A stretch of 64,000 nucleotides of DNA from an uncultured Clostridia bacterium (GTDB lineage: Bacteria > Bacillota > Clostridia > Christensenellales > UBA1242): positions 149,470 to 213,469 of the forward strand of contig CALVOG010000001.1 in the NCBI GenBank assembly GCA_944350265.1, read 5' to 3'. The notes under the pieces were generated by a model. That model worked only from the letters and a program-made list of their open reading frames with translations. It was not told where the DNA came from and ran no database searches. Below are positions 3,367 through 58,085 of this stretch, one piece after another. Positions within the stretch are counted from its first letter, which is position 1. Each line of letters opens with the position of its first letter. The translations under genes and the position numbers were made by a program.

Positions 3367-4098
3367 ATGAAAAAAACTGTGATTATAACCGGCGCTTCTG
3401 GCGATATTGGCAAGGCGCTGGCGGAAAAATTTGCAAAACTTAACTACAACCTCGCGCTATGTTCAAACGCACGCAATGTTGAATATGACGACGAGTTGAA
3501 GGAAAAATACAAAATCGACATCAAAAACTACAAAATGGATATCGCCGATTTTCAGCAGGTGGAAAGTGTTTTTTCTAAGATTTTTGCCGACTTTGACGCT
3601 GTCACCGCGTTAGTGGCAAATGCTGGAATAAGCGAAAAGCGAAAACTGATAATCGACGTCACAAATGAGGAAATTAACCAACTTGTGGATGTAAATCTCA
3701 AAGGCTCAATCGTTTGCGCGCGTGAATTTATCAAGCGCAATATGGATAACGGCGGAAAGATTGTTTTCGTCGGGTCTTTTGTTGCAAACTATGGCTGTGC
3801 GTGCGAAAGTGTTTACAGCGCAAGCAAGGCTGGGCTTGTTGGCTACACAAAGGCGCTTGCCAACGAACTTGGCAACTTTGATTTCACTGTGAATATTGTG
3901 AACCCCGGCTTTATCGACACAAAAATGAACAATAATCTCTCCACTGCCGAAAAGGTGGACATTGAGGATATGACGCCTCTCGCCCGCCTCGGTGAAGCGG
4001 AAGATGTGGCAAATGCAGTCGCCTTTCTTGTGGAGGACTCGGGCAATTTCATAACAGGGCAATCGATAAATGTTGACGGCGGATACATACCTCTCTAA
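3367..4098 (+). CDS. short-chain dehydrogenase/reductase (FabG-like oxidoreductase)
   Basis: GGAGG RBS. TGASGDIGKA (TGxxxGxG), NAG, YSASK (YxxxK), PGFIDT. 243 aa. Confidence 0.85.
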   Translation: MKKTVIITGASGDIGKALAEKFAKLNYNLALCSNARNVEYDDELKEKYKIDIKNYKMDIADFQQVESVFSKIFADFDAVTALVANAGISEKRKLIIDVTNEEINQLVDVNLKGSIVCAREFIKRNMDNGGKIVFVGSFVANYGCACESVYSASKAGLVGYTKALANELGNFDFTVNIVNPGFIDTKMNNNLSTAEKVDIEDMTPLARLGEAEDVANAVAFLVEDSGNFITGQSINVDGGYIPL

Positions 4099-4168: not shown

Positions 4169-4574
4169 AAGTGGTAGTTTTATAATTTTTGTAAGCTGTT
4201 CTACGACCATTCTTCGCTGGCGACGCTATCGCTCCTTGCTCAGAATGACATTTAAGTGTATTTCCTTCGGTATGCGCTTTATTATAACCACACTGTGCCG
4301 TTTTTGATGTTGTATTCTTCCATCGTTTAGCGCGCTATAATGCTTTTACCGTTAGACAAGGCAGTTGTTTGTCATTCTGAGGCAACGCCGAAGAATCTCG
4401 TCGTAGCACAACCCGCGAATGTCTATTTTATCCACTTTTCATATGTTTAATCCATACTCTATTTCGTCAGCAAAACACGGCTAAGCCCAAAACTCCCCAA
4501 ACATCCAAGCGCGCTTGGTCATTCTGAGCGAAGCGAAGAATCTCGTCGTAGCACCCGCCCGCGAATGTCTTAAC
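4169..4574. repeat. mosaic intergenic repeat cluster L1 (B-rev 4169-4256, Y-like spacer, W+X+Z 4330-4436, palindromic box 4505-4518, X+Z 4518-4572)
   Basis: X core gtcattctgag..gaagaatctcgtcgtag at 4371 and 4518 (forward) and its B variant at 4201-4250 (reverse). Z box gcccgcgaatgtcta is present. The locus lies between convergent genes. Confidence 0.9.
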
Positions 4575-4663
4575 CATCCCCTTTGCCCAAGTGCAACTAA
4601 TCTACACTCAAAAATGCTTAGCGCTAAATGAGCGTTAAGCATTTTATGTTAAAGTTTTAAGCA

Positions 4664-5119: not shown

Positions 5120-5159
5120 ATTAACCTCATAATAAGTTTTGCCAAACATAAAAAACTTA

Positions 5160-5362
5160 AACCAAATCTCATAATAATTGTCGAAAATAAAAAACATAAA
5201 TCTAATTAACTTATAATGGATTGCCAAGCGTTAACCAAATCTCATAATAATTGTCGAAAATAAAAAACATAAATCTAATTAACTTATAACGGATTGCCAA
5301 GCGTTAACCAAATCTCGTAATAATTGTCGAAAATAAAAAACATAAATCTAATTAACTTATAA
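5160..5362. repeat. 73-bp tandem repeat, about 2.8 copies
   Basis: aaccaaatctcataataattgtcgaaaataaaaaacataaatctaattaacttataatggattgccaagcgtt starts at 5160, 5233 and 5306, with 1-2 mismatches per copy. Flanked by a ~45-bp direct repeat (5121-5167 and 5412-5458). Confidence 0.9.
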
Positions 5363-5508
5363 TAAGTTTTTCAGCGTATTAAGTTGCTGAGCGTAAATAA
5401 TTTAAAATAAATTAACCTCAAATAAGTTTTTCCAAATATTAAAAACTTAAACCAAAAAAGAATAAACTGCCAATAATAACACAAACTAGAGTTATACTTG
5501 GAGGGAAT

Positions 5509-7227
5509 ATGAAAAATAAAGTAGTTTTAGGTGCGATTGTTTTGCTTCTTTGCGTCACCACTCTGGGCTGTAACAACTCATCAAACGCAATGATTAAAAC
5601 CAATCTGTCAAGCCAACTCGACAAAACCAACAACTCAATCGCAACTGTGAAAAGCGTGAGCGCAAGCGACGTGGAACTAAACAACAAAACCCAGATAACG
5701 GACGAAAGGAAGAGCGCAAATTTTCAAAACACCCTTGTCCGCGCGCAAAATTCTCTTGAGGCGGAAAGATATTTGAAGAGCGAAATTCAGCACAAAACTG
5801 CGTTTATCAAAAAGTATTTACAAAAAGAGGACTTAAAATTAAAGCGAACCGAATTGAACGCGCTTAAAGACCTCACCGCCACCCTCTCCGCATATAACGA
5901 CAATGTTGCGCGTTCGAGCAACGAGTTCAACTCAACCTATCGTAACTATAACACGATGAAAAAAGGTGCGTTTAAGAACATTGACCGCGTGAACGCAAAA
6001 CTAAATAAAATTGCTTCAAATTCGAATGCGCGCTGTGCCTATTACATCAACATACTAAGCACCCTCGACGAAATGGAAGGCATTTTGGGCATAGATGAGG
6101 AATATCTTAGCGACCTTAAAGAAAACTTTGAATTAAACAGTAAGCAGTTTGAAACCGAGGAGAAAAGCGAAGATTTTGAAATAAAAAATGGAAATGATTT
6201 GAATGGCAATGATGAAGATAAAAATAACGAAATCAAAAATAACGAAATGGAAGAAAATGAGAATGGTGTTAACAGCAAAATAGCAAATGGTGATAGGAAT
6301 GAGATTAACGAAATTGAAAATAACAAAGATAATAAAGTTGAAAATATTGAAAATGACAGAATTGAAAATATCAATAATGATAGAATTAAGAATAAAGGGA
6401 ATGATAAAATCAAAAATGATAAAAATAGCAAATTAGAAAATAATGAAAAAGATAACAAAATTGGTGATAAGAACAAAGTTGGAACTGACACGAATGGTAA
6501 GAATATTGATACAAACCTAAATAACAAAAAAATTAAAGATACGGAAATAAAGGAGAAAAATAATATTGCTGAAAATGAAATTGCAAGCAACAATAGCGAA
6601 TTTAAAAGCGATAAGAGAAGCGAAAGTAAATTTGATAAGATTAATAAGAACGATAATGTGATTGAAGATTCAATAGGCGAGAATGTCAACGTGATTGATA
6701 AAGTTAGCAATAGAAAAGAAAAGAAGAATTTTGAGAAAAACAAGAGCGCTGGCAAGATTGATAATGGCAAAAGTGGAAAATGGAAAAAGAATATCGACAC
6801 CTATCGCCCGCAGGAGGAAACAACCGAGGAGTTGGTTTATGAAACGCCATATAACACCGACACCTACGCCCCTCTAAGAAAAAACATCGACACCTACCGC
6901 CCATACAACAATGGCGCGATTGCTGGACGATATGGATATTATAATAGACCATATGGTTACCCGCCGTATAATGGAAACTACGCGCCGTATAACGGAAACT
7001 ATATGCCATATGGTGCCTACAGCACGCCTTATGGTGGATACAATTCCAACAATATCAACCGCCTAACCACCCCAATTTACGCCAGCACGCAAAACATAGA
7101 GGATGAAAATAAGGGTGAAAATTTGGAAAACAAAACAGAAGAAGCCAAAAGTGTGATGGCGAACCTATCGAGTGACGATGAGGACCGCGTTGTTAAGCAA
7201 AATTGCCGTGGCATTGTCACATTTTAA
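5509..7227 (+). CDS. lipoprotein with N/K/D/E-rich low-complexity core and Tyr/Asn/Gly/Pro-rich C-terminal region (572 aa)
   Basis: GGAGGG RBS. Signal peptide plus lipobox LLLCVTTLGC. Central ENIENDRIENINNDRIKNKGNDKIKND-type degenerate repeats. KNIDTYRP occurs twice and PYNGNYAPYNGNYMPYGAY is present. Confidence 0.7.
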   Translation: MKNKVVLGAIVLLLCVTTLGCNNSSNAMIKTNLSSQLDKTNNSIATVKSVSASDVELNNKTQITDERKSANFQNTLVRAQNSLEAERYLKSEIQHKTAFIKKYLQKEDLKLKRTELNALKDLTATLSAYNDNVARSSNEFNSTYRNYNTMKKGAFKNIDRVNAKLNKIASNSNARCAYYINILSTLDEMEGILGIDEEYLSDLKENFELNSKQFETEEKSEDFEIKNGNDLNGNDEDKNNEIKNNEMEENENGVNSKIANGDRNEINEIENNKDNKVENIENDRIENINNDRIKNKGNDKIKNDKNSKLENNEKDNKIGDKNKVGTDTNGKNIDTNLNNKKIKDTEIKEKNNIAENEIASNNSEFKSDKRSESKFDKINKNDNVIEDSIGENVNVIDKVSNRKEKKNFEKNKSAGKIDNGKSGKWKKNIDTYRPQEETTEELVYETPYNTDTYAPLRKNIDTYRPYNNGAIAGRYGYYNRPYGYPPYNGNYAPYNGNYMPYGAYSTPYGGYNSNNINRLTTPIYASTQNIEDENKGENLENKTEEAKSVMANLSSDDEDRVVKQNCRGIVTF

Positions 7228-7334
7228 CGTTTGCGTTGTTCAATCATAATTAGGGCTATTGGTAAGAGGTTAAGTAAACACAAAAAATATGCTTGACAAA
7301 GCCAGTTGATTTTAACCAGCATAAAAAATAAAAA

Positions 7335-7369
7335 GGAGTTCTACTTTTTAGCAGTAAAACTCTTTTTTT
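7335..7369. terminator. bidirectional rho-independent terminator between convergent genes
   Basis: GGAGTTcTAC-tttttagca-GTAaAACTC with an A-run before and TTTTTTT after. The same hairpin recurs at 58086-58118. Confidence 0.6.
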
Positions 7370-7428
7370 CAAAATTGCTTAAACATCAATTTTTTATCAA
7401 ATGCTTTTGATTTTTTTAGCCAAAAGTT

Positions 7429-8004
7429 TTAAAATTGAACTTTTGGAGCAACCTTTTCTTGCTCAGCAATCTCAAAAAGGTCTCTCTTTTCAAACTTAAA
7501 CCACTTTGCAATCATATTGGTTGGAAAAGATTCTCTTTTAATATTATAAGTTTTCACGCAACCATTATAATATTTCCTCGAAACAGAGATTTCCTCTTCC
7601 AAAGTTTTCAAAGTTTGTTGCAAGTCCAAAAAGTTTTGATTTGCTTGTAATTGAGGATAGTTTTCAGTGACAGCGAACAGCGATTTCAATGTGTTTGTAA
7701 GCACATTTTCGCTCTCCGCCCTTTCAGCGGTTGTTGACGCATTCATACAAGAATAGCGCGCCTGCATAACGCCCTCGAGAGTTGCCTCTTCGTGTTTTGC
7801 GTAACCCTTAACGGTTTCCACGAGATTAGGGATGAGGTCGTATCTTTTTTTCATATAAACGTCCATAGTGGAATACGACTCATCAACGTTATTACGAAGG
7901 CGCACGAAAGCGTTATATTGCACCCAAACCCAAACGCCGAAGATAACACCGACTAAAACAACCAAGCCCAAAATAACAAGCACAACGATAAGTCCAATGC
8001 TCAT
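7429..8004 (-). CDS. lemA: LemA family membrane protein
   Basis: N-terminal TM segment then LemA-type sequence (YNAFVRLRN.VDE..S..DV..KRRYDLIPNLVETVKGYA.HE..T...V..AR). 191 aa. Confidence 0.8.
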   Translation of the reverse strand: MSIGLIVVLVILGLVVLVGVIFGVWVWVQYNAFVRLRNNVDESYSTMDVYMKKRYDLIPNLVETVKGYAKHEEATLEGVMQARYSCMNASTTAERAESENVLTNTLKSLFAVTENYPQLQANQNFLDLQQTLKTLEEEISVSRKYYNGCVKTYNIKRESFPTNMIAKWFKFEKRDLFEIAEQEKVAPKVQF

Positions 8005-8057
8005 AATCTCCCTCCTAGAATAATTATATCATAAACAAACACAAAAATGAAACTAAA

Positions 8058-11000
8058 TTAACCAATTTTTTGTTTCTTTTTTGATTTTTTAAGAGATAAA
8101 ATGATGATGCTGACAACCATAGCGAAAAGCGCAAGGCACATCATAACAAAGAGGATGAGTCTTATGCCCTCGAAAAGTCCCTCGCCTTCTTTTTCGAACT
8201 GCACAAAAATCTCGGTGTCGCAGGTTATGCTCGAAAGCGCAACTAAGCCATTTTCGCTCTCCACTTTTTTGCCGTTGACGTAAACCGCTTTCACCTCGTA
8301 GCCCTCTTGCGCCTCGATTGGCACGATTAAACTTTCACCGTAATCCACGCGTTTACTGCTTTGCCCCGACGTCACTCCGCCCGCGCCGTAATTAATGGTG
8401 ACAACAAAAGATTTTTTTTGCGTTCCAATGCTAACGATGTGGTCGCTAAGAACATTCTCAATGGTGTAAGTGTTTTGCAAAGTTTGGCGAACGCCGTCAA
8501 TCTCAACATACGTCACAAAATACGCATCTTCAACATCCACCGAAAAAGTGAAGGAGTTGTTTCTTTTAACAATCACAGTTTTGCCCAAAACTTCGCCGTC
8601 ACATAGCGCCGTGGCGCCCTCAGCAAGCGAAAAACTAACGTCAAACTCCTCAATCGGCAAAACGGACGCATCGATGGATAGGTTTTCGCTTATATCGCTA
8701 ATTGTGAAACTGCCGTTTATAATTTCCACGCTTTCGCCGTTAGCCGTAACTGAAGAGATGTAGTAACTAGCCTTAGGTTCAACAACAATTTCGTAAGTTA
8801 AATCGCCGTAAAGTTTAAAGCCGTTTTCCGCTTTCATATTGTCGATATACACATCAAATTCGCCGTCATTGACGCTTAAAACATACTCCTCTTCGCCACC
8901 TGTAAGCACAACCACACTTATAACATCGGTGGAAAGCATCTTGCCAAATTCGTCGTAGATGTATAATTTGAAAGAATAACTATCTGCCTGCAAATCTTTG
9001 AATGTAAAAGTAATTCTATACTCATCCTCGCCGACATTTTCAATTATGCTTTCAACTTCTTTGGTTGCAGTTGGATAGTCAAATAAATTCGACTGTTCAA
9101 GCCTATATAAGTAGTTATCTAAATCAAATTTTGGAGCGTAGAAGTGAAATTCAACCGTCGCCTCGCCCGAACTTTTGTAGGCCACGCGTGTTGGATATCT
9201 CTCCAAAAAGCGCATATCCAAATTGACATATTCGTCGGCATAATCTTTCAAACGTTCTTCGAAATTGCTGGAAGAATAGGCGTAAATCGTCTTTGCCTTA
9301 AAGTATGAATCTTCAAAAGTTGTTAGGTTTGCGCCAAGAGTTAGCGAATTTAGCGCTAAATCGTCAAACGCGCCTTCTTTTATTGTTGTTGCATATGAAA
9401 GGTCGAGGTCGGTGAGTTTTTGGCAACCTTTGAAGGCATAATTTCCAATCGTATATGCGTTCTCAAGCATAACAGTTTCTAAGGCTACGCAATCGGCAAA
9501 AGCGTAACTGCCAACCATTCGAACGCCCTCACCTTTCACCGATTTAAGCGAAGAAAGCCCGTAAAAAGCGTAGTCACAAATTTGCAAACACGAAGAGCCA
9601 AATGTCACATTCTCCACCTTAGACTCAGCAAAGGCGTTGCTTTGAACACTGGTTATGGCGACCCCAGAAATCTCGTTCGGCACCGAAAGCGTTGTGAGCG
9701 AACCATTGTAACTTACAAGTGCGCCAGAGTATCCATTTCCGCTAACCACATAGCAACTTTCAAGGTCGATATGGTCGAAATAGTAAATTTTCGACGTGGT
9801 TTTACTTTTGGCAACAATGTTTCCGTCGTCAGCATAGACATACGCCACCGCAGTTACCTTGGTGGTCTTGCTTATCTCAATTGGCGAAAGATACTCATTC
9901 GACTCCTCGCTTGGTAAAGTTTCGTCGAGGGTGTAGTAGATTGTGTAGTCGCCGTCGTAGTCATATGATAATTCCAAGGTGATAGGCTCTTCCTTTTCGC
10001 CCTCTTCCACGCTGAACGTCACCTCGCCCAGCATTTCCACGCCAATGTTTGCAATGTTCACACATCCATAGCCGTAGTAGATATCTTTCCCCTCGTCGCC
10101 AAGGTCAATCGCATTTTCGAAAAGAAGGTTTTGAATTTCCTCGTTCGACATCGACGCGTATAGCGGGTTCGAAAGGAGGTTCGCAATCGACGCCGTCACG
10201 TGCGGAGCCGCCATTGATGTGCCAGGCAGTTCTTTATAGTGATTGATTCTTCCGTCGTTACTGTCACCGCCCACTTTGTATGAACTTTTAATATAACTGC
10301 CAGGCGCGCAAAGGTCAACCGTGGAGCCGTAGTTTGAATAATCTGCCACGCTAAGCCCGCCCTCAGCGGATGGATTTTCGTCGAGTGCCGAGACGGTGAT
10401 GACCTCCTTATCCATATTTGCTGGCGCGTTTGCCGATGTTTGATAATGGCTATTCCCCGCCGAAACCACCGCCATAATATTCGACGCATACGATTTTTCC
10501 ATTGCTTTTTCAAGCGACGAAACGCCCGTCACAGGCGAGCCGTCCTTCGATTCCACACCCAAACTCATATTTATTACGCGAATGTTTAGCCCAGAATTTT
10601 TGAGGCTGATGACATATTCAATCGCCGTCACAATCATTGCAATCGACCCAGTGCCGGTGCTTTTAAGCACTTTGCAAGGAATGAGAACGACGTTTGAAAG
10701 TGTTTGGTCAACAATTATTCCCGCGGTGTGCGAGCCGTGGCCCTCGTCGTCCTCAATATCGGTGGTGATGTTATCCTTATTACTCGACGTCACACCCACA
10801 AAATTCCTGCCATATGTGCTTGAATAACGCCCGGTCAAAAGTTCGTGCCGTGTGTTGACACCGCTGTCTAAAATCGGCACGTAGACGGTTTCAAGTTCGC
10901 TTTCGTCATAGTTTCGCGTGAGATATGAGAGATATTCGCCCACGCCCGTATACTTTGCGCCCCACGAAAGGAAGGTTTTTGTGGCGCTTGCCGAAACTTC

Positions 11001-12125
11001 GTCATTTCCTAACTCGCGCTCGGTGGAATTTGCTGAGGTTTTTGTTAAATTATCAGTTAAATTGATATTTTCGGCGCTTAAATTTTTTGCCGAATCTTCC
11101 GCTGTGTTACTTGTTTTCGTGTCTACCATATTTTGCGCAGTGGTAAGTGAGTTTGAAGAGAGATTTGCGGTGCTTGCTAAATTTTTCGCAGTGTCTACCT
11201 TTTCTGTGTCATTCAAAGAATTTAAAGACGAGCAGTCTGTTGAATTTTCCACAGAATTGTCTGCCGAATTGTCCAAACAGTCACTTTCAGCCACATTTTG
11301 AGTGTAACTTTCGCTGTAATAGACGCTGTCGTATGCAACCGATTCAACGTAAGAGAGGTTGCTATAATAGGAAAAAGCCTCGTCGGTCGCGCTACTAGAG
11401 GAGTATTGATAGATATGCCAGCCAAGCCCCTCGGCGTAGTCTTTCGTTTTATACGGCTTTAAATCGCCCTCGTAATAAACTATAATACGATTGGTGTAAA
11501 GTTTGGAAAGAATGTAGTTTTCCGCCGTTTCGGTGACAATATATTTCGTGTCATTAAGGTTAATAAACGCCCTGTTTTCGGTGCTTTCAGCCTTTTTTGA
11601 AGCTTCAATCGCACTCGCCGAGGCACTTTCGACGCCCACATCGCTCGCCTCACAAACATCACCACTTCTCGCAACATCACCCAACAAAACCTCACTGGTC
11701 GTGCTTACAGCCGAAAGAGCCTCGCCGTTCTCGCTCGTATTGTTATTGGAAGCGTTTTCTCCTTGCGCACTAATTTCGTCCGCATAAACAACATTTTCAG
11801 CAATAGAGGCGCTGTCAACAACGCCGTTAATCATATCCTCATTTAAACTCGAAGCCTCAACAAACACCTCTCCGTCTATTTCAATAGCGTCATTCTTGCT
11901 GATAACAACGCGTTCCTCTCGCACATCGCCGAATTTCGCGTATAACTCGCTAACCTGGTCATAAAACTCCTCAAATGTGCCAGAAGAATATATTGGGGTC
12001 AAATTAATTGCGCCTAAAAAACTCAAAAACGGCAACAAAATTATAACGGCAATGATAACGCAAAGCGCGCGCAAAAGTCCGCTAATTCCTATATTATATC
12101 TCTTTCTAACCCCAACATTCATCAT
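8058..12125 (-). CDS. cell-surface subtilisin-like (S8) serine protease with BspA-type leucine-rich repeats, Ig-like repeats and C-terminal TM anchor (about 1355 aa)
   Basis: Catalytic triad motifs ILDSGVN, HGSHTAG and GTSMAAPHV. LRR_5-like segment (AFADCVALETVMLENAYTIGNYAFKGCQKLTDLDL). C-terminal TM segment plus KKSKKKQK. Start set to MMNVGVRK (12125), which has a GAGGA RBS; the track ORF begins at 12212. Confidence 0.8.
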   Translation of the reverse strand: MMNVGVRKRYNIGISGLLRALCVIIAVIILLPFLSFLGAINLTPIYSSGTFEEFYDQVSELYAKFGDVREERVVISKNDAIEIDGEVFVEASSLNEDMINGVVDSASIAENVVYADEISAQGENASNNNTSENGEALSAVSTTSEVLLGDVARSGDVCEASDVGVESASASAIEASKKAESTENRAFINLNDTKYIVTETAENYILSKLYTNRIIVYYEGDLKPYKTKDYAEGLGWHIYQYSSSSATDEAFSYYSNLSYVESVAYDSVYYSESYTQNVAESDCLDNSADNSVENSTDCSSLNSLNDTEKVDTAKNLASTANLSSNSLTTAQNMVDTKTSNTAEDSAKNLSAENINLTDNLTKTSANSTERELGNDEVSASATKTFLSWGAKYTGVGEYLSYLTRNYDESELETVYVPILDSGVNTRHELLTGRYSSTYGRNFVGVTSSNKDNITTDIEDDEGHGSHTAGIIVDQTLSNVVLIPCKVLKSTGTGSIAMIVTAIEYVISLKNSGLNIRVINMSLGVESKDGSPVTGVSSLEKAMEKSYASNIMAVVSAGNSHYQTSANAPANMDKEVITVSALDENPSAEGGLSVADYSNYGSTVDLCAPGSYIKSSYKVGGDSNDGRINHYKELPGTSMAAPHVTASIANLLSNPLYASMSNEEIQNLLFENAIDLGDEGKDIYYGYGCVNIANIGVEMLGEVTFSVEEGEKEEPITLELSYDYDGDYTIYYTLDETLPSEESNEYLSPIEISKTTKVTAVAYVYADDGNIVAKSKTTSKIYYFDHIDLESCYVVSGNGYSGALVSYNGSLTTLSVPNEISGVAITSVQSNAFAESKVENVTFGSSCLQICDYAFYGLSSLKSVKGEGVRMVGSYAFADCVALETVMLENAYTIGNYAFKGCQKLTDLDLSYATTIKEGAFDDLALNSLTLGANLTTFEDSYFKAKTIYAYSSSNFEERLKDYADEYVNLDMRFLERYPTRVAYKSSGEATVEFHFYAPKFDLDNYLYRLEQSNLFDYPTATKEVESIIENVGEDEYRITFTFKDLQADSYSFKLYIYDEFGKMLSTDVISVVVLTGGEEEYVLSVNDGEFDVYIDNMKAENGFKLYGDLTYEIVVEPKASYYISSVTANGESVEIINGSFTISDISENLSIDASVLPIEEFDVSFSLAEGATALCDGEVLGKTVIVKRNNSFTFSVDVEDAYFVTYVEIDGVRQTLQNTYTIENVLSDHIVSIGTQKKSFVVTINYGAGGVTSGQSSKRVDYGESLIVPIEAQEGYEVKAVYVNGKKVESENGLVALSSITCDTEIFVQFEKEGEGLFEGIRLILFVMMCLALFAMVVSIIILSLKKSKKKQKIG

Positions 12126-12216
12126 AAAAATCCTCTTTAAAAATTTGTAGGTGACGCTGTTAAACTCTAAATGCTTGTTGCACAAGATATGGCTAAACAC
12201 GCGACATATCAATGTT

Positions 12217-12690
12217 ACCTAGCGTGCAGTATTGCCTCTACCGCTAGGACTGCCACCCTGTTTGTCATTCTGAGCGAAGCGAAGAATGGATGTAGGTGAC
12301 GCTGTCACATTCTAAGGTTTCGCGTGTTAGACGGTGTCGCTTAAACCGAAGGCTAGTTACTCTATCACCGCCCGCGAACGTCTAATCCATCTTCTTATTG
12401 TCGAAGCGGAAGAATGGACGTAGGTGACGCTGTCACATTCTAAGGTTTCGCGTGTTAGGCTGTGTCGCTTAACCAAAAACAATGCAGTTTAATGTCATTC
12501 TGAGCGAAGCGAAGAATCTCGTCGTAGCACCAGCCCGTGTATGTCTAATCTATCCTCTTTTTTTGTTGGCAAATTACAGCCAAACTTTAAACACTCATCT
12601 CATCCAAGCGCGCCTTTTTCAATGTATGTCTAATCCATCCTCTTTTCCCCAGCCAAACACGGCTTATATGTGCCAACAATCCCACACGCT
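12217..12690. repeat. mosaic intergenic repeat cluster L2 (W-X-Y-Z-X'-Y-X-Z chain)
   Basis: X at 12262-12295, Y (gtgacgctgtcacattctaaggtttcgcgtgttag...) at 12296-12365, Z at 12366-12390, partial X at 12399-12423, second Y at 12424, full X at 12492-12527, long Z at 12528-12615, and an extra Z fragment to 12667. Confidence 0.9.
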
Positions 12691-12947
12691 TATGTTTATA
12701 TATAATAACTTACATATATACATACATTAATATTATATCCCCCAAATCGAAAAAAATCAAACAAATCAATCGGTTTAATAAAAATTCCGTCATAGTTTTC
12801 TTATTTCTTCTTTCAAAATAATTTGAACTGAAGTAAAAATAGGAAAACAAAAAAATAATTTGAACTGTAAAATGAAATAAGAGTGAAGAGAGAAAAAAGA
12901 AAAAATAAGAGAACCAAAAAAATAATTCGAAGAACGAATTATTTTTT

Positions 12948-13075
12948 TGGTGCGGGCGGTGGGGGTCGCTCCGCGGATAGTAAGGCTTCGCTGGCTGTTC
13001 CGCTATCACGCCGGGGCGGGCGAACGCAAACACAGTTGCCTTCGCTACTCCGCCCGTTCGACCCGCTTACAAACT
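12948..13075 (-). repeat. tRNA-Leu 3'-end-derived 128-nt unit U1
   Basis: The first 21 nt (tggtgcgggcggtgggggtcg) are identical to tRNA-Leu positions 56-76 including ACCA. The remaining 107 nt are GC-rich and hairpin-forming. A hairpin terminator lies at 12916-12948. Confidence 0.85.
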
Positions 13076-13387
13076 TTAATAAAAAATAAAAAGTAAAAAA
13101 TAAGAGAACAAAAAAATAATTTGAAATTCAACCACACTCTTACATCGCTCTCCTTGTAAGAGAGTAGCGACCTACTCGCCAACGAAGTGCGAGTTGCGTT
13201 TGGTCGCTAAAAGAAAAAACAAGCGAAAAGGCGATGCAACGGAAGAAACGGCTCTTCATTTCAACTTTTGCCTTACGTCAAAAGTCTTACCATTCGTTTG
13301 TTTCTTCCTTATTCCAAAAAATGCGTAAAGCATTTTTCGGAGACCTAAACGCTTGTTCGAAAACGAGCAAAAGTGCAGTTTTTTCTT

Positions 13388-13515
13388 TGGTGCGGGCGGT
13401 GGGGGTCGCTCCGCGGATAGTTGGGCTTCGCTGGTGGTTCCGCTATCACGCCGGGGCGGGCGAACGCAAACACAGTTGCCTTCGCTACTCCGCCCGTTCG
13501 ACCCGCTTACAAACT
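13388..13515 (-). repeat. tRNA-Leu 3'-end-derived 128-nt unit U2
   Basis: Differs from U1 at 4 positions only (gtAAggc vs gtTGggc, ggCTgtt vs ggTGgtt). Lies 440 bp from U1 in the same orientation as the tRNA. Confidence 0.85.
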
Positions 13516-13516
13516 T

Positions 13517-13550
13517 AAATAAAAAAAGAAAGTTCCTCTTTTCAACTTTC
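13517..13550 (-). terminator. terminator of tRNA-Leu
   Basis: On the minus strand: GAAAGTT-gaaaagagg-AACTTTC followed by TTTTTTTATTT, starting 7 nt after the tRNA CCA end. Confidence 0.55.
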
Positions 13551-19246: not shown

Positions 19247-19834
19247 TTAATTGTCTTTATCGACCAATGTTTTATTATCCATATCATCTTGCGCATAGGA
19301 TTCTAAGCCGTCTTGCGAATTGCTGGAAGTTCTTTCGTTGTCCAAGCGTTTTTCAGCTTTTAACTTTTCCTCTTTCAAGTTTTCATTGCTCAAATTTTTA
19401 TCGTCAAAATTTGTATCATTCAAGTTTGCATTCAAGCTTTCATCTTCCAGGTTTGCCACATTCAAGTTTTTGTTGTTTGAGCCCTTATCTTCCAAATTTT
19501 CATTGCCCAGACTTTTATCATCCAAATTTGTATCATTTAAGTTATTATCGTTCAAACCAATGTCTAATTTGTTAATGTTCAAACTTTTATCTTCCAAGTT
19601 TTTATTTTCAAAGTTTTCATCATTCTCGTTTGAAGTGGCGCTGTTTTTGGTTTCTTTTGTTATAAAGCCCAAAACCACCAAAAGCCCCGCTATCGACATT
19701 ACAACATCCTCAACAATCTTATTGTCAATTTGAAAGTTAAAAATCTTGCCAATACAATTAATGAAAAGAACAAGGGCGCCAGAAAACGAAATCCAAAAAC
19801 TGTAACTTTTCATCCGCTCAAACAACTTCTTCAT
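19247..19834 (-). CDS. phage holin (Phage_holin_1/phi LC3-like N-terminus) fused to an NLxDx pentapeptide-like repeat tail
   Basis: The segment KSYSFWISFSGALVLFINCIGKIFNF...VMSIAGLLVVLGFI resembles LC3-type holins. About 20 five-residue NL(N/E/D)D(K/T/E) repeats follow. Start set to MKKLFERM (19834), which overlaps the upstream stop. Confidence 0.6.
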   Translation of the reverse strand: MKKLFERMKSYSFWISFSGALVLFINCIGKIFNFQIDNKIVEDVVMSIAGLLVVLGFITKETKNSATSNENDENFENKNLEDKSLNINKLDIGLNDNNLNDTNLDDKSLGNENLEDKGSNNKNLNVANLEDESLNANLNDTNFDDKNLSNENLKEEKLKAEKRLDNERTSSNSQDGLESYAQDDMDNKTLVDKDN

Positions 19835-20054
19835 CCTCAGCCTCATCACATCTAAGAAATTCTTTTATTTCACAAACCTCCTCCTTCACCTCTTTTAGAA
19901 TGTTTAAATTTTCGGTTAAATTTTCAATCGTTTCAATGTATTGCGCCTCTCGCCGTGAAGAGTCTTTAAGTTGATAGAGAAACAACCACACGAACAAAAT
20001 TGCAAACACGCCATTACTTATCACTATGCTTACTATCTCTTTCCAAAGTTCCAT
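19818..20054 (-). CDS. BhlA/UviB family holin-like protein
   Basis: One N-terminal TM segment (IVSIVISNGVFAILFVWLFLY) then a charged coiled tail (SSRREAQYIETIENLTENLNILKEVKEEV), typical of the BhlA family. 78 aa. Confidence 0.6.
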   Translation of the reverse strand: MELWKEIVSIVISNGVFAILFVWLFLYQLKDSSRREAQYIETIENLTENLNILKEVKEEVCEIKEFLRCDEAEDEEVV

Positions 20055-20151
20055 TTGCCACCTTCTAAAATTTGTTTTACCATAACACCATCTCCTTTTT
20101 TTAACAAAAAATCTTTCTTTTGAAATTTAAGATAGCATTTGTAAATCAATC

Positions 20152-21657
20152 TCACGAAATCACATCGAACACAATCATCGGTTTTGAAATATGGCAGTTT
20201 GCTTCATTTGTTTTAAAAACGAATTGAAAATTTTTGCCGTTAACAGAAACGCTCTTTCTTTCTTCCTTTTCGCTTCCGTCAAAGGAATAGGTTTTCGTTT
20301 CGACATCGCTGACAACCTCCACCTCGCACGCATACCTACTATTTAAGATTATCTCCTTAACCTTTTTATTCTTTCCTTTATATCCTAAGTCCGTGACAAA
20401 AGAACGCCAACTTTTTTCGGTGGAAATATCGAAGATTTTGCCACTACGCGTAAGTTCGCCAATCTTGCCAACATTCGCACCATTGAAGCACGCCACAACT
20501 TTGCTAAAATAAGGCGTGTCGACGGCGATAATTTTGTTGATATCCACCCCGCGCAAAACATCCACCTTGCCTGTTTCGATATCCACCTCAAAAAGCGCAT
20601 TGTTTTTAAAAGAGGACGCCTCGCATCCAACATCCTCGCCATCGCCAAAGTCGCATTTCGTTGCCAAATAATACTTCCCGTCCAAACAGCAAGCGGACGC
20701 ATTTTGGTTATCTAAGTTTTTGAAAAAGTGGTCATATTCCTCACAAATTTTCTTCACACTTGTGCCGTTAAACGAATACAGCCCCTCTCTGGTCACAAAA
20801 TAGATAACCTCGCCACAAACGCAAATGGATTTTTCGTAAATTTTCGAAGTGGAAAGATAGAGGTGCGTGAAAGAAAACTCGCCCTTTGTGGTATACGCCG
20901 AAATTTTGGTTATGCCGTTCTCGCGGAAGAGGTAAACATAGTCGTTGAACACCGCAAGTTTAGTGAACGCGCCCATCGAATCTAAGAACTCAATCACACT
21001 ACCCACATCGTCCGTCCACTCTCTCACGTCCAAATTTTGGTGATAGATAAGCTCGTTGCGATTGGTGTTCGTTATGCCAAACGCCATACCATAATGCACA
21101 ACAAGCGAAAGTAGTGGCGGAACATCAGCAAATCTTTGCGTTGTGTAGGCGCTCGAAAAGATAAGCCCATTAGAATCGAAAAATAAGAGACAATCATACT
21201 CGCCAATTCGATACGGAATGGTGGCGAGAATATTTTGAAAAAGAAGGCTGGACTTCGACAACGGCTCGCCATCAGCAACATCGATAAGAAGTAGGGTCCA
21301 AATTTGGTCGCGCTGGTCCTTAATCACCAAGTGGTAGTAATAGCAGTCGTCGTCGATATCCAAATACCTAAAATAGTCAATCGACCTAACCTCGGTTATC
21401 GTTTTTGAGGAAAGGTCGAAGGGATGCACATTTTCTAAGTCATCCTCGCTTGCTGGCACATTTAGAACTTTAAACCCAAGCCCCGTTTTAAGCGCGCCGT
21501 CAAGTGGTGAAAAATTATAAAAAGTTTTGCATTCGTTCGGCTTAGAGATTAAGTCGTCCTCATTAGAGACCACCCCTTCGCCAAAAACTGAAAAAGTGAT
21601 GTTTTTTTCCACAGTCTTTTTGTGCTTTTTAAGGTTTTTATAAAAAATCAAAACCAT
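20152..21657 (-). CDS. phage structural protein, beta-propeller-like (501 aa); sits where a podovirus tail hub/nozzle would be
   Basis: Start overlaps the upstream stop by 10 nt. Repeated YxF / YYLA / GLYSFNG strand-like motifs. No family recognised, so the role is inferred from gene order only. Confidence 0.3.
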   Translation of the reverse strand: MVLIFYKNLKKHKKTVEKNITFSVFGEGVVSNEDDLISKPNECKTFYNFSPLDGALKTGLGFKVLNVPASEDDLENVHPFDLSSKTITEVRSIDYFRYLDIDDDCYYYHLVIKDQRDQIWTLLLIDVADGEPLSKSSLLFQNILATIPYRIGEYDCLLFFDSNGLIFSSAYTTQRFADVPPLLSLVVHYGMAFGITNTNRNELIYHQNLDVREWTDDVGSVIEFLDSMGAFTKLAVFNDYVYLFRENGITKISAYTTKGEFSFTHLYLSTSKIYEKSICVCGEVIYFVTREGLYSFNGTSVKKICEEYDHFFKNLDNQNASACCLDGKYYLATKCDFGDGEDVGCEASSFKNNALFEVDIETGKVDVLRGVDINKIIAVDTPYFSKVVACFNGANVGKIGELTRSGKIFDISTEKSWRSFVTDLGYKGKNKKVKEIILNSRYACEVEVVSDVETKTYSFDGSEKEERKSVSVNGKNFQFVFKTNEANCHISKPMIVFDVIS

Positions 21658-22205
21658 CTCCGTTTAGGAAGGCGCAACTCGCTTTTCTTACGTGCAAGCA
21701 CGAACAAACTTTCCTTGAAGCGCTCCTCAAAGATTTCCGCGTCCTCGCCCAAGCCATCAAAAAGAAGATACTCGCTCGCCATTCCGTAGGCATAAATTCT
21801 TGCCGACAGCCCGCAGTTTAGTTCCACAGTGTCGCTAAGCGCAAGGTCGCCCGGCAAAAAGGAATAGGTGATTTTTTTAGCGTGACCGAACACCTCGATG
21901 TAGTTTGGATACGCCTTATATCGCACATTTTGCCCAAAACTTCCCTTAAGCGCAAAGATATTTATGACCTTTTTCGTCAAATTTGAATAGTTTAATATGG
22001 AATTTTTAACATCTATATTTTCAGTATGTAAAAAAGGGAGATAGTCAGATGCTATCTCTTGGTTGACAAGATTAAAACACCTGACTAATGTGTTCACCCG
22101 CTCATTCTCCCCGTCAGTCAAAGAATCGTTATTCTCCAACTTTGATGCGAGTTCCTTTTCGCCTATAAATAAGGCGGTGTAAATCACCAAATCTTTAACA
22201 ATCAT
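21648..22205 (-). CDS. phage structural protein (185 aa); sits where a head-tail adaptor would be
   Basis: Start set to MIVKDLV (22205), which has a GGAGG RBS and overlaps the stop of the 106-aa gene. The role is inferred from gene order. Confidence 0.3.
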   Translation of the reverse strand: MIVKDLVIYTALFIGEKELASKLENNDSLTDGENERVNTLVRCFNLVNQEIASDYLPFLHTENIDVKNSILNYSNLTKKVINIFALKGSFGQNVRYKAYPNYIEVFGHAKKITYSFLPGDLALSDTVELNCGLSARIYAYGMASEYLLFDGLGEDAEIFEERFKESLFVLARKKSELRLPKRRWF

Positions 22206-22515
22206 ACAATCTTGCCTCCGCTTCATTCAAAATTCGGTGACTCTTAACTTTAAGATTCCTCGCGTTTTCCTCTTCAATTTCCTTGAATAACTCATCCCTC
22301 TTCTCGCTCAGCGTTTTCTTAGTTAGAAAGAGCGTGCGCTCGTCGAGAGAGTCGAAGGGCAAAGTGAGGCAAAAGGTGTTATACTTCTGCGCTCTATTAT
22401 GAAGTTCGAAAACTTTACGCTCAATATTATAAACAACGAAGTAATCCTTATCGATTTCTTTTAGTCTTTTAACGATATCTAAGCAATCACTGTCAATTTC
22501 AAATGAATTTTTCAT
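22195..22515 (-). CDS. hypothetical phage-module protein (106 aa)
   Basis: Intact ORF, co-oriented and translationally coupled to the next gene. No family recognised. Confidence 0.4.
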   Translation of the reverse strand: MKNSFEIDSDCLDIVKRLKEIDKDYFVVYNIERKVFELHNRAQKYNTFCLTLPFDSLDERTLFLTKKTLSEKRDELFKEIEEENARNLKVKSHRILNEAEARLYDC

Positions 22516-22772
22516 ATTTTTTCCTTTTATTTAGTTAAGTTCGGCTAATTAAATTAGTTTTTGTGGTTAATGTTGGTAAATCTTATTAAAACTGCATCTT
22601 AGATAGGTTATTCAGTATTAAACTTACTTTTAGGTTACTATTATTAAGTTCTTCCTTTTCTAGTTTTGCTTTTTCCTGCTACTACTATGTTGCTCACTTT
22701 TATGTTTCATAAGGATAACCTTTCTTAAAGAAGCGCATTTTAATAAGAGCTTAATAGTTTTTTTCTATATAA

Positions 22773-23990: not shown

Positions 23991-24005
23991 TTTTTGCTCC
24001 TTTTG

Positions 24006-24719: not shown

Positions 24720-24720
24720 C

Positions 24721-28825: not shown

Positions 28826-28846
28826 GAGTTAAAACAGCAATAGCTA

Positions 28847-29162
28847 ATGTGGTATCATTAGAATTTTGTAAGCCGTTCTTCGACGAGATTCTTCGCTGGC
28901 GTCAGCGTTGCTTCCTTGCTCAGAATGACAAATAACTGCTTTGCCTTCGGTATAAGCGACACTGCAAACACATGACACTTTAGTAAGTGATAGCGTAGTT
29001 GTAACATAACTCATAACGTAAGGCGACACTGCTAAATGTCATTCTGAGCGAAGCGAAGAATCTCGTCGTAGCACCCGCCCGCGTATGTCTATTCTATCCT
29101 CTTGTTGCTAGTAAAACACGGCTAAACCCAAAACGCACCTCACATCCAAGCGCGCTTGGTCA
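28847..29162. repeat. mosaic intergenic repeat cluster L3 (B-rev, Y-rev, X, long Z)
   Basis: B-rev at 28847-28930, reversed Y fragment at 28925-28995, X at 29037-29071, long Z ending in the palindrome ccaagcgcgcttgg at 29146-29159. Confidence 0.9.
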
Positions 29163-29424
29163 TAAAAAAATACTTAGCGTAAAGATAAACGCTAAGCATT
29201 TTTTAGAATTGTTAAAATGATGTTTTTTAGAGTTTGTATAACGCAACTGACGCTAAGCATCACAATATTCACTCAAAATTCGAACCCCACTAAATCCTCA
29301 ATAAGGTTTGCATTACAAAAATAATTTCACAACACTCACTAAAATTCGAACCTACACTAAATCATTTAACAGCCAAATGACACTTATAATAAATCTCGCG
29401 CTAGGCTAAATCTCGCAACTCACA

Positions 29425-31306: not shown

Positions 31307-31450
31307 AAAAAATGTTTATGTTACAACCGCGAAAAAAAGACGCCTTACTTAAAACAAAAGCTCTATTAATAATCCAAGTATGCATATTCTTAAAATACAT
31401 ATTGAAATAAATTCTTTTTAAGAGGTAATTGTAAAATCTTTGAAAGCAAT

Positions 31451-31530
31451 ATCTACGACGAGATTCTTCGCTGGCGTCGCATTGCTTCTTGCTCAGAATG
31501 ACATTTAGCGGTATCACCGCGGTATAAGTT
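31451..31530. repeat. mosaic repeat L4 (single B-rev copy)
   Basis: Sequence: ctacgacgagattcttcgctggcgtcgcattgcttcttgctcagaatgacatttagcggtatcaccgcggtataag. Confidence 0.85.
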
Positions 31531-37460: not shown

Positions 37461-37700
37461 GTTGCTTAGCGTGCCACAACACTTATGCTGTTAAGACTAT
37501 TGATTAATTTGTCATTCTGAGCGGAGCGAAGAATCTCGTCGTAGCCACCACCCGCGTATGTCTAACAATTCCTCAGTGGCAAAGCCACATTTTGATGTTT
37601 CGCGCATTGCGCCCTATCGCTAAATCAATGGCGCTTGGTGGCGAAGCCACATTTTGATGTATTGCGTGTTACGCTTTATTGCTTAAATCAATCGTGCTTA
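37461..37700. repeat. mosaic intergenic repeat cluster L5 (W-X-Z then two tandem Y-type units)
   Basis: X at 37508-37545 (core gcggagc). Y-type units start at 37576 and 37638 (62-bp period) with hairpins GTGGCaaaGCCAC and GTGGCgaaGCCAC. Confidence 0.85.
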
Positions 37701-38550: not shown

Positions 38551-38690
38551 CACCTATATTACCCGCCCGCGAATGTCTAATCTTTCCTCTTACCGCCAAC
38601 TAAACACGGCTAAACTTTAAACACCTCACTTACCCAAGCACGCGGGCATTCTTAGACAACCCCGAAGAATGGTCGTTTATGGTGATTTTA
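38551..38690. repeat. mosaic repeat cluster L6 (long Z plus diverged X)
   Basis: acccgcccgcgaatgtctaatctttcctc ... aaacacggctaaac ... cccaagcacgcgggcattcttagacaaccccgaagaatggtcg. Confidence 0.8.
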
Positions 38691-42415: not shown

Positions 42416-42490
42416 ACGCCCTCCTCATTGTATATATATTATATAACATTTATAGAAAAAATCAAATAAAAAATGAAAGATTTTTAAAGG

Positions 42491-42650
42491 TAGTGGCGAA
42501 GCCACTTTCTAAGGTATCGCATATTAGACTGCGTCTGTTGCGCAAAAGGCTAATTTACCTATCACCGCCCGCGAACGTCTAATCTTTCCTATTTTTGCTA
42601 GAAAAACACAGCTAAACATAAAACACCTCAACAATCCAAGCGCGCTTGTC
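42491..42650. repeat. mosaic repeat cluster L7 (Y plus long Z)
   Basis: The Y hairpin is GTGGCgaaGCCAC. Then caccgcccgcgaacgtctaatctttcc ... aaacacagctaaac ... atccaagcgcgcttg. Confidence 0.85.
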
Positions 42651-46844: not shown

Positions 46845-47135
46845 TCCACATCCAAGCGCGCAATGTATAAATCTAATTGTCGCGTGGTAACACTTATACC
46901 GATAGGACTATTGGTTTATTTGTCATTCTGAGGCGAAGCCGAAGAATCTCGTCGTAGCACCCACCCGCGTATGTCTAATTATACCTCTTAAAATATAAAA
47001 TTGCACTAGTGTCGATACCCACTGACTTTTTAAGTGGTAGTTTTAGAATTTTTGTAAGCCGTTCTACGACGAGATTCTTCGCTGGCGTCGCCTTGCTCCT
47101 TGCTCAGAATGACATTTAGCGATATTTCTTATAGC
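46845..47135. repeat. mosaic repeat cluster L8 (Z end box, W, X, Z forward; B reverse)
   Basis: X at 46919-46956 (core ggcgaagcc) and B-rev at 47028-47122. Confidence 0.9.
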
Positions 47136-55792: not shown

Positions 55793-55886
55793 AGAGATAT
55801 TTTAGCAAAAAGATGAGAAAAAAACAACATTTATTCGACAATATTTTCCTAAATCACTCACTTTTTTAGTTTTGCACGCGTTTTGA

Positions 55887-56575
55887 GGTGACACTGTCAC
55901 TTTTTGTGGTGTCGCGTGCTAGGCAGTGTCGCTTATACCAAAGGCAGGGCAGTTATTTGTCATTCTGAGCGTAGCGAAGAATCTCGTCGTAGCACCAGCC
56001 CGCGAACGTCTAATAATTCCTCTTAAGAAACACTTGCTTAAGAAACACTTGCCACGCAATACCATTTCTACCGCTAGGACTGTCAGCCTATTTGTCATTT
56101 TGTGCGGAGCGAAGAATGGTCGTAGGTGACGCTGTCACATTCTAAGGTGTCGCGTGCTAGGCAGTGTCACTTATACCGAAGGCAAGGCAGTTATTTGTCA
56201 TTCTGAGGCAACGCCGAAGAATCTCGTCGTAGCACCAGCCCGCGAACGTCTAATAATTCCTCATAAAAAATGCTTAGCGTTTACTTTACACTAAGCGTTG
56301 TATTTTAAAATTTTAAGCACTTGCTTTTAATATCTATTCGTCAAAGTGGTAATTTTAGAGTTTTGTAAGCCGTTATACGACGAGATTCTTCGCTGGCGTC
56401 GCCTTGCTTCTTGCTCAGAATGACATTTAACGATATCGCTTTGTGGTTTAGGTTATTTTGCAAACATACTATATCATCCATCACCAAGCCCGCGGACGTC
56501 TAATCTTTCCTATTTTTATTTGCAAAACGCGACTAAGCCACATATCAATCATCCAAGTGCGCTTGGTCCTCGTCA
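55887..56575. repeat. mosaic intergenic repeat cluster L9, the largest (Y-X-Z, W-X-Y-X-Z, B-rev, long Z)
   Basis: X cores at 55958, 56096 and 56197 (forward), B-rev at 56341-56440, long Z at 56475-56567 whose end box overlaps the recombinase stop region. Confidence 0.9.
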
Positions 56576-57603: not shown

Positions 57604-57687
57604 ACAATAATTATACCAACATCGCCAAAAAAAGTAAAACAAATTTAGCGCAAAAAGCGTTTAACTGCGATTAAGTGCCATCCGCTC

Positions 57688-58020
57688 AAAGTGGTAATGT
57701 TTGAGTTTGTGTAAGTGAGTTCTACGACGAGATTCTTCGCTAGCGTCACTACCGCTCCTTGCTCAGAATGACATTTAACGGTATCGCCTTACGGTATGCA
57801 CACTGCGTCGTTTTTGATGTTGTGTATTCTTCTATAGCTTAACGCGCAGTAACACCTATACCGCAAAGACTATCACGCTATTTGTCATTCTGAGGCGAAG
57901 CCGAAGAATCTCGTCGTAGGTGACACTGTCACTTTTTGTCGTTTCGCGTGCTAAACATTATTGCTTACATCAAGAAAAACCACAATATCATCACCCGCGT
58001 ATGTCAAATTATTCCTCTTT
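57688..58020. repeat. mosaic intergenic repeat cluster L10 (B-rev, Y-like, W, X, Y, Z)
   Basis: B-rev at 57688-57780, X at 57884-57919 (core ggcgaagcc), Y hairpin GTGACactGTCAC at 57920, Z remnant cacccgcgtatgtcaaattattcc. Confidence 0.9.
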
Positions 58021-58085
58021 AGAAAAAAGCAACAAAACGCGCAAGGGTTAAATCATTTTTAAACTAGCGTAATAAAAAAGAAAAA

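Follow-up and report, generated by a model that had tools for sequence, protein, structure and literature searches.

A tandem-G.A, GNA-loop hairpin in mosaic intergenic repeat arrays of an uncultured Clostridia bacterium

A stretch of 64,000 nt from an uncultured Clostridia bacterium (GenBank assembly GCA_944350265.1, contig CALVOG010000001.1, positions 149,470 to 213,469; hereafter the window) carried two families of short hairpin repeats, designated X and Y. The fold of X is maintained by paired changes in its outer stem, and its 5' tag, G.A pairs, closing pair and loop ends are fixed as sequence. Folding was selected, most likely in the form of DNA. X and Y are probably the hairpin cores of non-coding, selfish-looking repeats of the repetitive extragenic palindromic (REP) type, expanded in one Clostridia species as mosaic intergenic arrays. 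By analogy, the arrays appear to resemble the REP arrays of enterobacteria, the bacterial interspersed mosaic elements (BIMEs), and the dRS3 arrays of Neisseria, the Neisseria intergenic mosaic elements (NIMEs).

X was represented by 18 copies in the window, 12 short copies on the + strand and six long copies on the - strand. Its architecture was TGTC/ATTCT-GA-GC-gNa-GC-GA-AGAAT/CTC, with tag, hairpin and tail separated by slashes. The TGTC tag was present in 16 of the 18 copies and the tail comprised three unpaired nucleotides reading CTC. The pattern ATTCTnnGCnnnGCnnAGAAT was matched eight times, compared with 0.35 expected matches, and no shuffle reached that count. Positions are given as the start of GTCATTCT. 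The core GCgaaGC was found at 4518..4544, 12264..12290, 12494..12520 and 29038..29064. The first of these copies had the tag GGTC and was fused to the palindrome CCAAGCGCGCTTGG of a neighbouring module, and the second was followed by GGATGTAG and then by Y, the sequence of 12262-12365 beginning with TTTGTCATTCTGAGCGAAGCGAAGAATGGATGTAG and continuing with GTGACGCTGTCAC. GCgtaGC was located at 55959..55985 and GCggaGC at 37511..37537. The form GGCaacGCC occurred at 4371..4399 and 56197..56225, and GGCgaaGCC at 46922..46950 and 57884..57912. Two further + strand copies, 38645..38673 and 56094..56120, were degenerate. The outer stem was invariant in the window except for a T.G wobble in the copy at 56094. 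Long copies were located at 4206..4249, 28885..28929, 31460..31502, 47071..47113, 56382..56424 and 57729..57772. Their tag, outer stem, G.A pairs and tail were the same as in short X, and their inner segment comprised 21-23 nt. The inner stems differed (GGC/GCC, AGCG/CGCT, GCGA/TCGC and CGCTG/CAGCG), with GCGA-tagcg-TCGC at 4206 and AGCG-gtagtga-CGCT at 57729. Taken singly, these stems of 3-5 bp were not better than shuffles. The GGC-form copies at 56195-56222 and 57882-57909 also scored as sigma-70-like promoters (TTGTCA, 16 nt, AAGAAT). The shorter form, with a 14-nt spacer, gave no such score.

The window had been read before from its letters alone, and that original prediction described X and Y as hairpins preserved by compensatory changes. 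All motifs that it listed were recovered, within 0-5 nt of where it had placed them. It missed the six long and two degenerate X copies, a Y copy at 7208 and the strain-variable, REP/NIME-like mosaic context. In the variation of X, which it had called structure-preserving throughout, the change from GC to GGC/GCC added one pair, and the differences between gaa, gta and gga were loop changes.

Maintenance of the X fold was established with copies from unrelated contigs. IMG/VR was scanned with a set of patterns, in each of which a single part of the hairpin was unconstrained, and distinct copies were counted. X was found in many unrelated contigs with 32-69% GC. It was also present, unannotated, on plasmids of Calothrix, Planktothrix, Oscillatoria, Hymenobacter, Phocaeicola, Granulicella and Novosphingobium. 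When no outer stem was prescribed, the 5-bp stem was perfectly complementary in 69 of 83 copies, which held 10 different stem sequences. Shuffles gave 21 +/- 3.4 perfect stems, with a maximum of 34 in 5000. Stem types were ATTCT (32 copies), ATCCT (20), ATTCC (6), ACCCT (4) and others, and 37 of the 49 copies with a 5' arm other than ATTCT had an exactly matching 3' arm. The Y/R position of the stem (ATTCY/RGAAT) was concordant in 30 of 30 distinct copies and in 91 of 92 copies of the set with free loop length. When the inner segment was not prescribed, the second inner pair was Watson-Crick in 21 of 30 copies (C-G 13, G-C 7, T-A 1), compared with 10.8 +/- 2.3 expected. The claim that the X fold is maintained was thus upheld outside the window. 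Two arrangements of X-type hairpins were observed among the unrelated contigs. L208 held them as head-to-tail tandems every 33 nt (9360-9492) and L156 as inverted pairs with the tags outside, TGTC...GACA (3860-4070).

Other parts of X were conserved as sequence. The dinucleotides adjacent to the core read GA..GA in 128 of 136 copies (94%) when left free, and the loop read GNA in 113 of 136 (83%; GAA 43, GCA 39, GGA 16, GTA 15). When loop length was allowed to vary between 2 and 8 nt, 71 of 92 copies had a 3-nt loop and 60 of 92 were G-N-A, with every N used. Of 30 copies, 29 had a G-C closing pair. Among 83 copies, GTC was preceded by T in 65, by C in 14, by G in 3 and by A in 1. Pair 1 of the outer stem was A-T and pair 2 was T-A, each in 72 of 83 copies, and all non-degenerate copies of the window agreed with this. 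The original prediction had placed selection on the folded form and 'not on the primary sequence'. Its first half stands, most likely for DNA, but its second half was too strong, given that the TGTC tag, the first two stem pairs, GA..GA and the closing G-C are conserved across phyla. Searches in other collections added little. A scan of GTDB genomes for CGAAGAATCTCGTCGTAG, in which the source species was not represented, gave single matches only, mostly chance coding matches and a few unrelated X-type hairpins. A scan of Joint Genome Institute (JGI) metagenomes for the junction of X with its 3' modules J and Z gave one chance match. A full-text literature search for the hairpin sequence returned no relevant paper, the matches being bla/TEM and primer sequences.

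Y had the architecture GTGRC-nnn-GYCAC and was present with nine copies in the window. The nine matches to this pattern compared with 0.05 expected, and no shuffle reached the count. The stem GTGAC/GTCAC was found at 12296..12308 and 12424..12436 (both GTGACgctGTCAC), 55888, 56126 (placed at 56131 in the original prediction) and 57920..57932. GTGGC/GCCAC was found at 37576..37588, 37638..37650 and 42493..42505 (GTGGCgaaGCCAC). The ninth copy, GTGGCattGTCAC at 7208, held a G.T pair and was intermediate between the two forms. It was part of a genuine module combination, Y followed by the leader module L, and a chance match was excluded. Four of the five stem pairs were invariant and one was A-T in five copies and G-C in three. 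All 40 stem cells were paired (100%), which was equalled by 11 of 500 shuffles. The split between A-T and G-C coincided with two Y subfamilies and may therefore be a single event. The double covariation reported earlier for this position is real in its counts, and its weight is modest. Outside this species, only coding chance matches to Y were found. The tetranucleotide GTAG lay 0-2 nt 5' of the Y foot in four of the nine complete copies (12296, 12424, 56126 and 57920, each directly 3' of it) and in a truncated copy at 12152. In every case it was the tail of a preceding X or X remnant. At 42493 GTAG overlapped the first stem base, and the copies at 55888, 37576, 37638 and 7208 had no GTAG in front.

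Several observations bear on the folded molecule. The conserved G.A and GNA features were present on one strand only. In unrelated contigs, the orientation of X relative to conserved neighbouring genes was even over sense and antisense, upstream and downstream positions (33/31/32/29), and in the window short X was on the + strand whether the adjoining genes were + or -. Single-mismatch copies of X comprised one G.T and four A.C, without an excess of G.T. GNA triloops dominated the family and GNRA tetraloops were rare. The link drawn originally between GCGAAGC and an unusually stable DNA mini-hairpin fitted the loop counts given above and the published melting temperatures, 76.5 C for d(GCGAAGC) and d(GCGAAAGC) and 39 C for the RNA r(GCGAAAGC) (PMC13037366). 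Rfam gave no match at the gathering score in the whole window, and only chance-level matches at E up to 10 over 55800-58100. The even orientation, the lack of wobble excess, the GNA loops, the melting data, the lack of Rfam matches and the ordinary stability of the whole 150-nt unit (see below) together favour folded DNA.

The same observations count against a role of the hairpins in RNA, which we regard as unlikely. Arrays would then be co-transcribed with their neighbours, and the hairpins would serve as 3'-end protectors, processing sites or weak terminators, as proposed for many REPs. A good promoter-like site, TTGATT-17-TATAAT (-, 12760 to 12732), is situated upstream of the array in front of the S8-peptidase gene, so this array probably belongs to a long 5' leader. 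In some unrelated contigs X follows a stop codon by 4-9 nt in sense orientation, the Y copy at 7208 holds a G.T pair, and RNA roles are argued in the REP literature (PMC3733652). A strand-specific RNA hairpin is hard to reconcile with an even sense and antisense distribution, with short X beside + and - genes alike, and with triloops in place of GNRA loops. X also lacks a following U-tract, continuing instead as CTCGTCGTAG, and only the Y at 57918 scored as terminator-like. The whole unit of 150 nt was no more stable than its shuffles on either strand, as RNA or as DNA (z ~0).

Recent descent from a palindromic founder, without selection on folding here, is a weaker candidate and distinctly improbable. 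Paired differences would then only mark subfamilies. This would suit the invariant outer stem of X in the window, the single covarying Y position tied to two subfamilies, the inner stems of long X and the overall identity of 60-100% between array copies. Flanking modules, however, have diverged down to 60-70% identity while the stems stayed paired, including all 40 cells of Y. The degenerate copies at 38645 and 56094 display what unconstrained decay looks like, and the matching 3' arms in 37 of 49 family copies with a changed 5' arm speak against such descent too.

Slightly less probable still are double-stranded binding sites, in which the arms would be inverted-repeat half-sites for a dimeric protein such as a recombinase, gyrase or nucleoid protein, and folding would be unnecessary. 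The arms are equally conserved, and G.T and A.C mismatches are equally rare. Escherichia coli REPs bind gyrase and IHF (PMC3733652), and a recombinase has been proposed for dRS3 (PMC1797815). A gene for an Xer-like recombinase (56545-57561) has arrays on both sides, yet it stands beside the same PAP2-TsaE-TsaD neighbours in relatives that are free of the repeats. The centre of X is not palindromic as a duplex. GA..GA (94%) and G-N-A (83%) are kept in place of complementary bases, a pattern characteristic of a folded single strand with sheared G.A pairs.

Other candidates were rejected. An intrinsic terminator was rejected for want of a U-tract. A coding peptide (..CHSERSEES..) was dismissed since copies differ by 2-nt indels and nested insertions, because of which no reading frame is kept. 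A hammerhead-like core (CUGA..GAAA) lacked both the three-way junction and an Rfam match. The GTTAGGC/GCTTAAC motifs of Y vary among copies, against an integron attC site, and irregular spacing spoke against CRISPR. A long structured RNA over the 150-nt unit was rejected, since on either strand its z-score was close to 0. RNAalifold suggested another long-range helix in Y, which showed little covariation and consisted mostly of G-U pairs. A strictly one-way orientation of every module was true of the window but was rejected because L108 has one reversed L-X-J-Z unit.

All X and Y copies were located within 11 arrays with a total of about 3.2 kb, or about 5% of the window. The arrays were all intergenic, except for a Y-L remnant at 7208 that begins in the last codons of the open reading frame (ORF) 5509-7227, and the surrounding genes were convergent, tandem or divergent. 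The arrays were mosaics of the recurring modules Y, L, X, J, Z, V and W. Y comprised the hairpin plus about 35 nt and L, the leader, about 50 nt. J was CTCGTCGTAG, a 10-nt tail 3' of X that ends with GTAG. Z read CACCnGCCCGCGnAnGTCTAAT..TCCTCTT and W began with AACGGCTTACAAAAATTCTAAAAC. V ended with the perfect 14-nt palindrome CCAAGCGCGCTTGG (e.g. 4504-4517 and 29145-29158), fused to GTCAT of the next X; at 29158, GTCAT alone remained where X would follow. Modules switched exactly after GTAG of J, and the next module was Z, Y or W. The five Y copies behind an X-derived tail, four complete and one truncated at 12152, all began directly after GTAG. Those at 12296 and 57920 continued into Z at CACC, and those at 12424 and 56126 into L-X-J and then Z. 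Y therefore looks nested between X-J and Z.

The array with the site first noted, 12147..12665 (+), was located upstream of the S8-peptidase gene (- strand) and comprised truncated Y, L, X, J', Y-L', Z, partial X, J', Y-L, X, J, Z, V and Z-tail. Between convergent genes, array 4170..4600 held W + long X (-), spacer/L, X, J, Z, V, X, J and Z. The Y-L remnant extended over 7208..7263 (+). Array 28846..29163 was composed of W + long X (-), spacer/L, X, J, Z, V and the truncated GTCAT, and an isolated W + long X was found at 31439..31519 (-). L, X, J, Z, Y and Y formed array 37470..37700 (+) between two + strand genes, followed by Z-V and a degenerate X at 38563..38675 (+). Array 42489..42648 (+), downstream of ligA, comprised Y, L', Z and V. 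At 46845..47135, a V-end, L, X, J and Z preceded W + long X (-). The largest array, 55886..56536, began with Y (55888), L, X (55959), J, Z, L, degenerate X (56094), J' and Y (56126). It continued with L, X (56197), J, Z, W + long X (-, 56382) and Z. The last array, 57690..58030, held W + long X (-), spacer/L, X, J, Y, L' and Z. A conserved gene for an Xer-like tyrosine recombinase (56545-57561, -) separated the last two arrays and was accompanied on both sides by a W + long X unit in the same orientation. In relatives this gene follows a SpoIVB peptidase gene. That side was rearranged in the window, so that an array and a break in synteny fall together. Homologues of this recombinase carry the name 'MAG Clostridiales integrase'.

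Arrays were situated at syntenic loci and varied in content between strains. The comparison included assemblies of the same species (L096-L099 and L108, about 98% nucleotide identity), found via protein look-ups, and covered about 90 kb of species sequence. A 108-bp L-X-J-Z unit was present in four other assemblies of the species at 57652..57655, where the window had an empty site. [quoted passage not shown] Strain L108 carried a 575-bp array right behind the Y-L remnant (window position 7263) that was absent in the window and included one reversed L-X-J-Z unit. At the locus of 12147..12665, L108 had X-J-Z-V-X and the window X-J'-Y-L'-Z-partial X-J'-Y-L-X, so both Y units were missing in L108. 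The flanks differed too in L108, and no clean pair of sites with and without a Y unit was found. Unrelated DNA took the place of 46843-47030 in L096. Genes adjacent to arrays were the most divergent from L108 over 5306-12287, with 94.5% identity for ORF 5509-7227 and 97.0% for the S8 peptidase, compared with about 98% elsewhere. Neither the X, Y and Z modules nor another repeat family was present in two syntenic 21-kb loci of relatives (Xer proteins 87% and 82% identical). On the sequence at hand, the repeat expansion looks specific to this lineage.

The window had about 39% GC, a GC skew that was negative throughout and most genes on the - strand. It encoded SpoVA, PFOR, PolA, LigA and PcrA. 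Two G+C-rich elements of about 120-140 nt and 94% identity (12952-13091 and 13392-13531, -) were situated in A+T-rich DNA beside a tRNA-Leu gene. They had the closing stem GCGGG...CCCGC, the end ...CCGCCCGCACCA and a fold z-score of -1.5, and a strong terminator hairpin (12913-12951) was located behind the first copy. At E up to 10, Rfam still gave no match to the element. A single copy appears to be present in L108. The element may be an undescribed small RNA. A 73-bp unit was repeated three times in tandem at 5153-5371 with 86-100% identity, and L108 seems two units shorter there. Two more A+T-rich intergenic tandem arrays were located at 2156-2299 and 30125-30306; one had four copies of a 29-bp unit upstream of lgt and the other about six copies of a 30-31-bp unit. 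A prophage-like block (about 19800-26640, -) was recognised by a P22-type portal protein and a BhlA holin in the Pfam tables of locus L108, and ORF 19247-19849 within it had a 15-nt periodic repeat. A long acidic (Asp/Glu-rich) repeat with 9-12-nt periodicity was found at 53226-53484 in the ORF 53235-53795 (-) of 186 aa.

If X and Y are the cores of REP-type repeats, the following mechanism could account for them. The hairpins would fold while the DNA is single-stranded, as in replication or repair, and X would have the very stable mini-hairpin d(GCGNAGC) on top, with two sheared G.A pairs and then the 5-bp stem stacked beneath it. A structure-specific DNA enzyme encoded elsewhere and acting in trans would recognise the folded hairpins and cut or join DNA beside them, after GTAG. 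Copying or retention would be limited to repeats in which both the fold and the contact bases are kept. Such a filter would explain paired stem changes together with frozen bases elsewhere. Homologous recombination among the many copies would shuffle the modules and make the arrays hot spots of strain variation.

Six points weigh against this reading. Firstly, no Y1/HUH, IS110 or other transposase was detected with Pfam or NCBIfam among the larger ORFs of the window, several of which were hypothetical and without a match, or in the Pfam tables of the strain loci; shorter ORFs and the rest of the genome lay outside the scan. A protein search with a spurious repeat-derived ORF gave no candidates either. 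The recurrent genes beside X-type hairpins in unrelated contigs were likewise set aside and are probably not mobilising, as their products looked like phage structural proteins (capsid-, portal- and tail-like) on inspection of the sequences by eye, without a family library. Secondly, the GA-form strand of short X, and that of Y, Z and V, is the negative-GC-skew strand and not the exposed lagging-strand template, on which IS608-type elements place their active strand. In the wider family, the GA strand of X weakly tends the same way (111 vs 68 copies, p = 0.0016). Thirdly, most strain differences were replacements of one module set by another, which homologous recombination alone could produce. 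Fourthly, the compensatory evidence within the window is real but amounts to about two paired changes, not enough alone for the claim built on it. Fifthly, the proposed hairpins were the minimum-energy folds in nearest-neighbour models, and the energies of X were unremarkable (z from +0.6 to -1.3); such models fail to capture the stability of the mini-hairpin (PMC13037366). Finally, among the abundant REP-type repeats, the CGTC-tagged REPs, one of the known kinds closest to X, have no known dedicated transposase (PMC3733652).

A more far-reaching idea, which we hold only tentatively and consider doubtful, is that X (TGTC-ATTCY-GA-GC-GNA-GC-GA-RGAAT-CTC) is a pan-bacterial, self-propagating element of single-stranded DNA with the ultra-stable d(GCGNAGC) mini-hairpin as its core, moved or maintained by a widespread enzyme or a replication-linked process. 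We know of no transposase for this hairpin class. If the idea is true, these would be the first NIME-type mosaic arrays on such hairpins outside Neisseria. The repeats have recently expanded, are strain-polymorphic and are absent from the scanned loci of relatives, a setting in which a mobilising activity can be found, and the junction for module exchange is precise, after GTAG and 10 nt from the hairpin foot. Comparison across the family also gives evidence that selection keeps a hairpin known from DNA biophysics in many phyla, and its features favour folded DNA over RNA. The results suggest a counterpart in Firmicutes of the mosaic intergenic arrays that were considered peculiar to Neisseria. 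Should none of this hold, the arrays are an ordinary intergenic repeat family.

Among known systems, the superfamily of CGTC-tagged REPs (Di Nocera et al. 2013), which includes Neisseria dRS3 and Rickettsia RPE-4 and RPE-6, was compared with X on its textual description (PMC3733652). Both have an unpaired CGTC/TGTC tag at the 5' foot, a stem that begins with A-T and then T-A, and an unpaired 3-nt tail, with the consensus CCA in the REPs and CTC in X. Both are short, intergenic and multi-copy, occur in several phyla, partly as inverted pairs, and have no associated transposase, for X among the scanned ORFs. Stems of the CGTC REPs comprise 8-9 paired bp with a loop of 4-5 nt, whereas X has 5 bp, two G.A, 2-3 bp and a 3-nt GNA loop, or nine stem positions if G.A is counted as pairs. 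Firmicutes and Clostridia are outside the five phyla reported for CGTC REPs. By this textual description, X is a tandem-G.A/GNA variant of a cross-phylum hairpin family with no known mobilising enzyme.

In architecture and strain variability the arrays matched BIMEs in general terms, and they matched NIMEs, in which dRS3 hairpins (ATTCCC-N8-GGGAAT, a 20-bp inverted repeat) separate RS modules of 50-150 bp (PMC1797815). As there, an ATTC..GAAT hairpin punctuates many different modules of 50-150 bp in intergenic arrays, loci are fixed while content and length vary between strains, and the genes adjacent to arrays are the most divergent (PMC1797815). NIMEs are stated not to occur outside Neisseria, where dRS3 is the target of a phage recombinase of the Piv/IS110 type (PMC1797815). 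The scan described above revealed no gene of that kind. The present arrays differ in phylum, in their modules and in their hairpin, ATTCT-GA-GC-GNA-GC-GA-AGAAT instead of dRS3.

GTAG-tagged REPs, with their BIMEs, the REP doublets forming hairpins (REPINs) and the RAYT (TnpA-REP) transposases, share with Y a GTAG at the 5' foot of a short hairpin (four complete copies and one truncated), a mosaic organisation and hairpins that are thought to be read as single-stranded DNA. Unlike in those REPs, GTAG here belongs to the tail of X, and Y copies without X in front lack it. Y has a stem of just 5 bp, the scan described above detected no RAYT gene and Y was not found outside the species. Elements of the IS200/IS605 type and their non-autonomous derivatives, with single-strand 'peel and paste' transposition, are similar in having hairpins near the unit ends, no target duplication and insertion directly 3' of a fixed tetranucleotide, which here would be GTAG, with 10 nt from the X foot to the junction. 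They differ in that TnpA was not found in that scan, that strand orientation with respect to GC skew is the reverse of that expected from IS608 and that most strain differences resemble recombination, not transposition. The small dispersed repeats (SDRs) of Nostoc, described by Elhai et al. in 2008, are reportedly very small hairpin repeats nested in other repeats and show compensatory changes. X-type hairpins occur on cyanobacterial plasmids.

At the level of the core, GC-GNA-GC of X equals the d(GCGNAGC) mini-hairpin, which leaves N free as a biophysical rule (PMC13037366), as do the loops of X, where GAA, GCA, GGA and GTA are all common. Apart from biophysical work, a few origins and promoters of phages or plasmids are where this mini-hairpin is known (PMC13037366). 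It is not known to have been reported as the core of a chromosomal repeat family with high copy number. In X, two G.A pairs and a 5-bp stem extend it.

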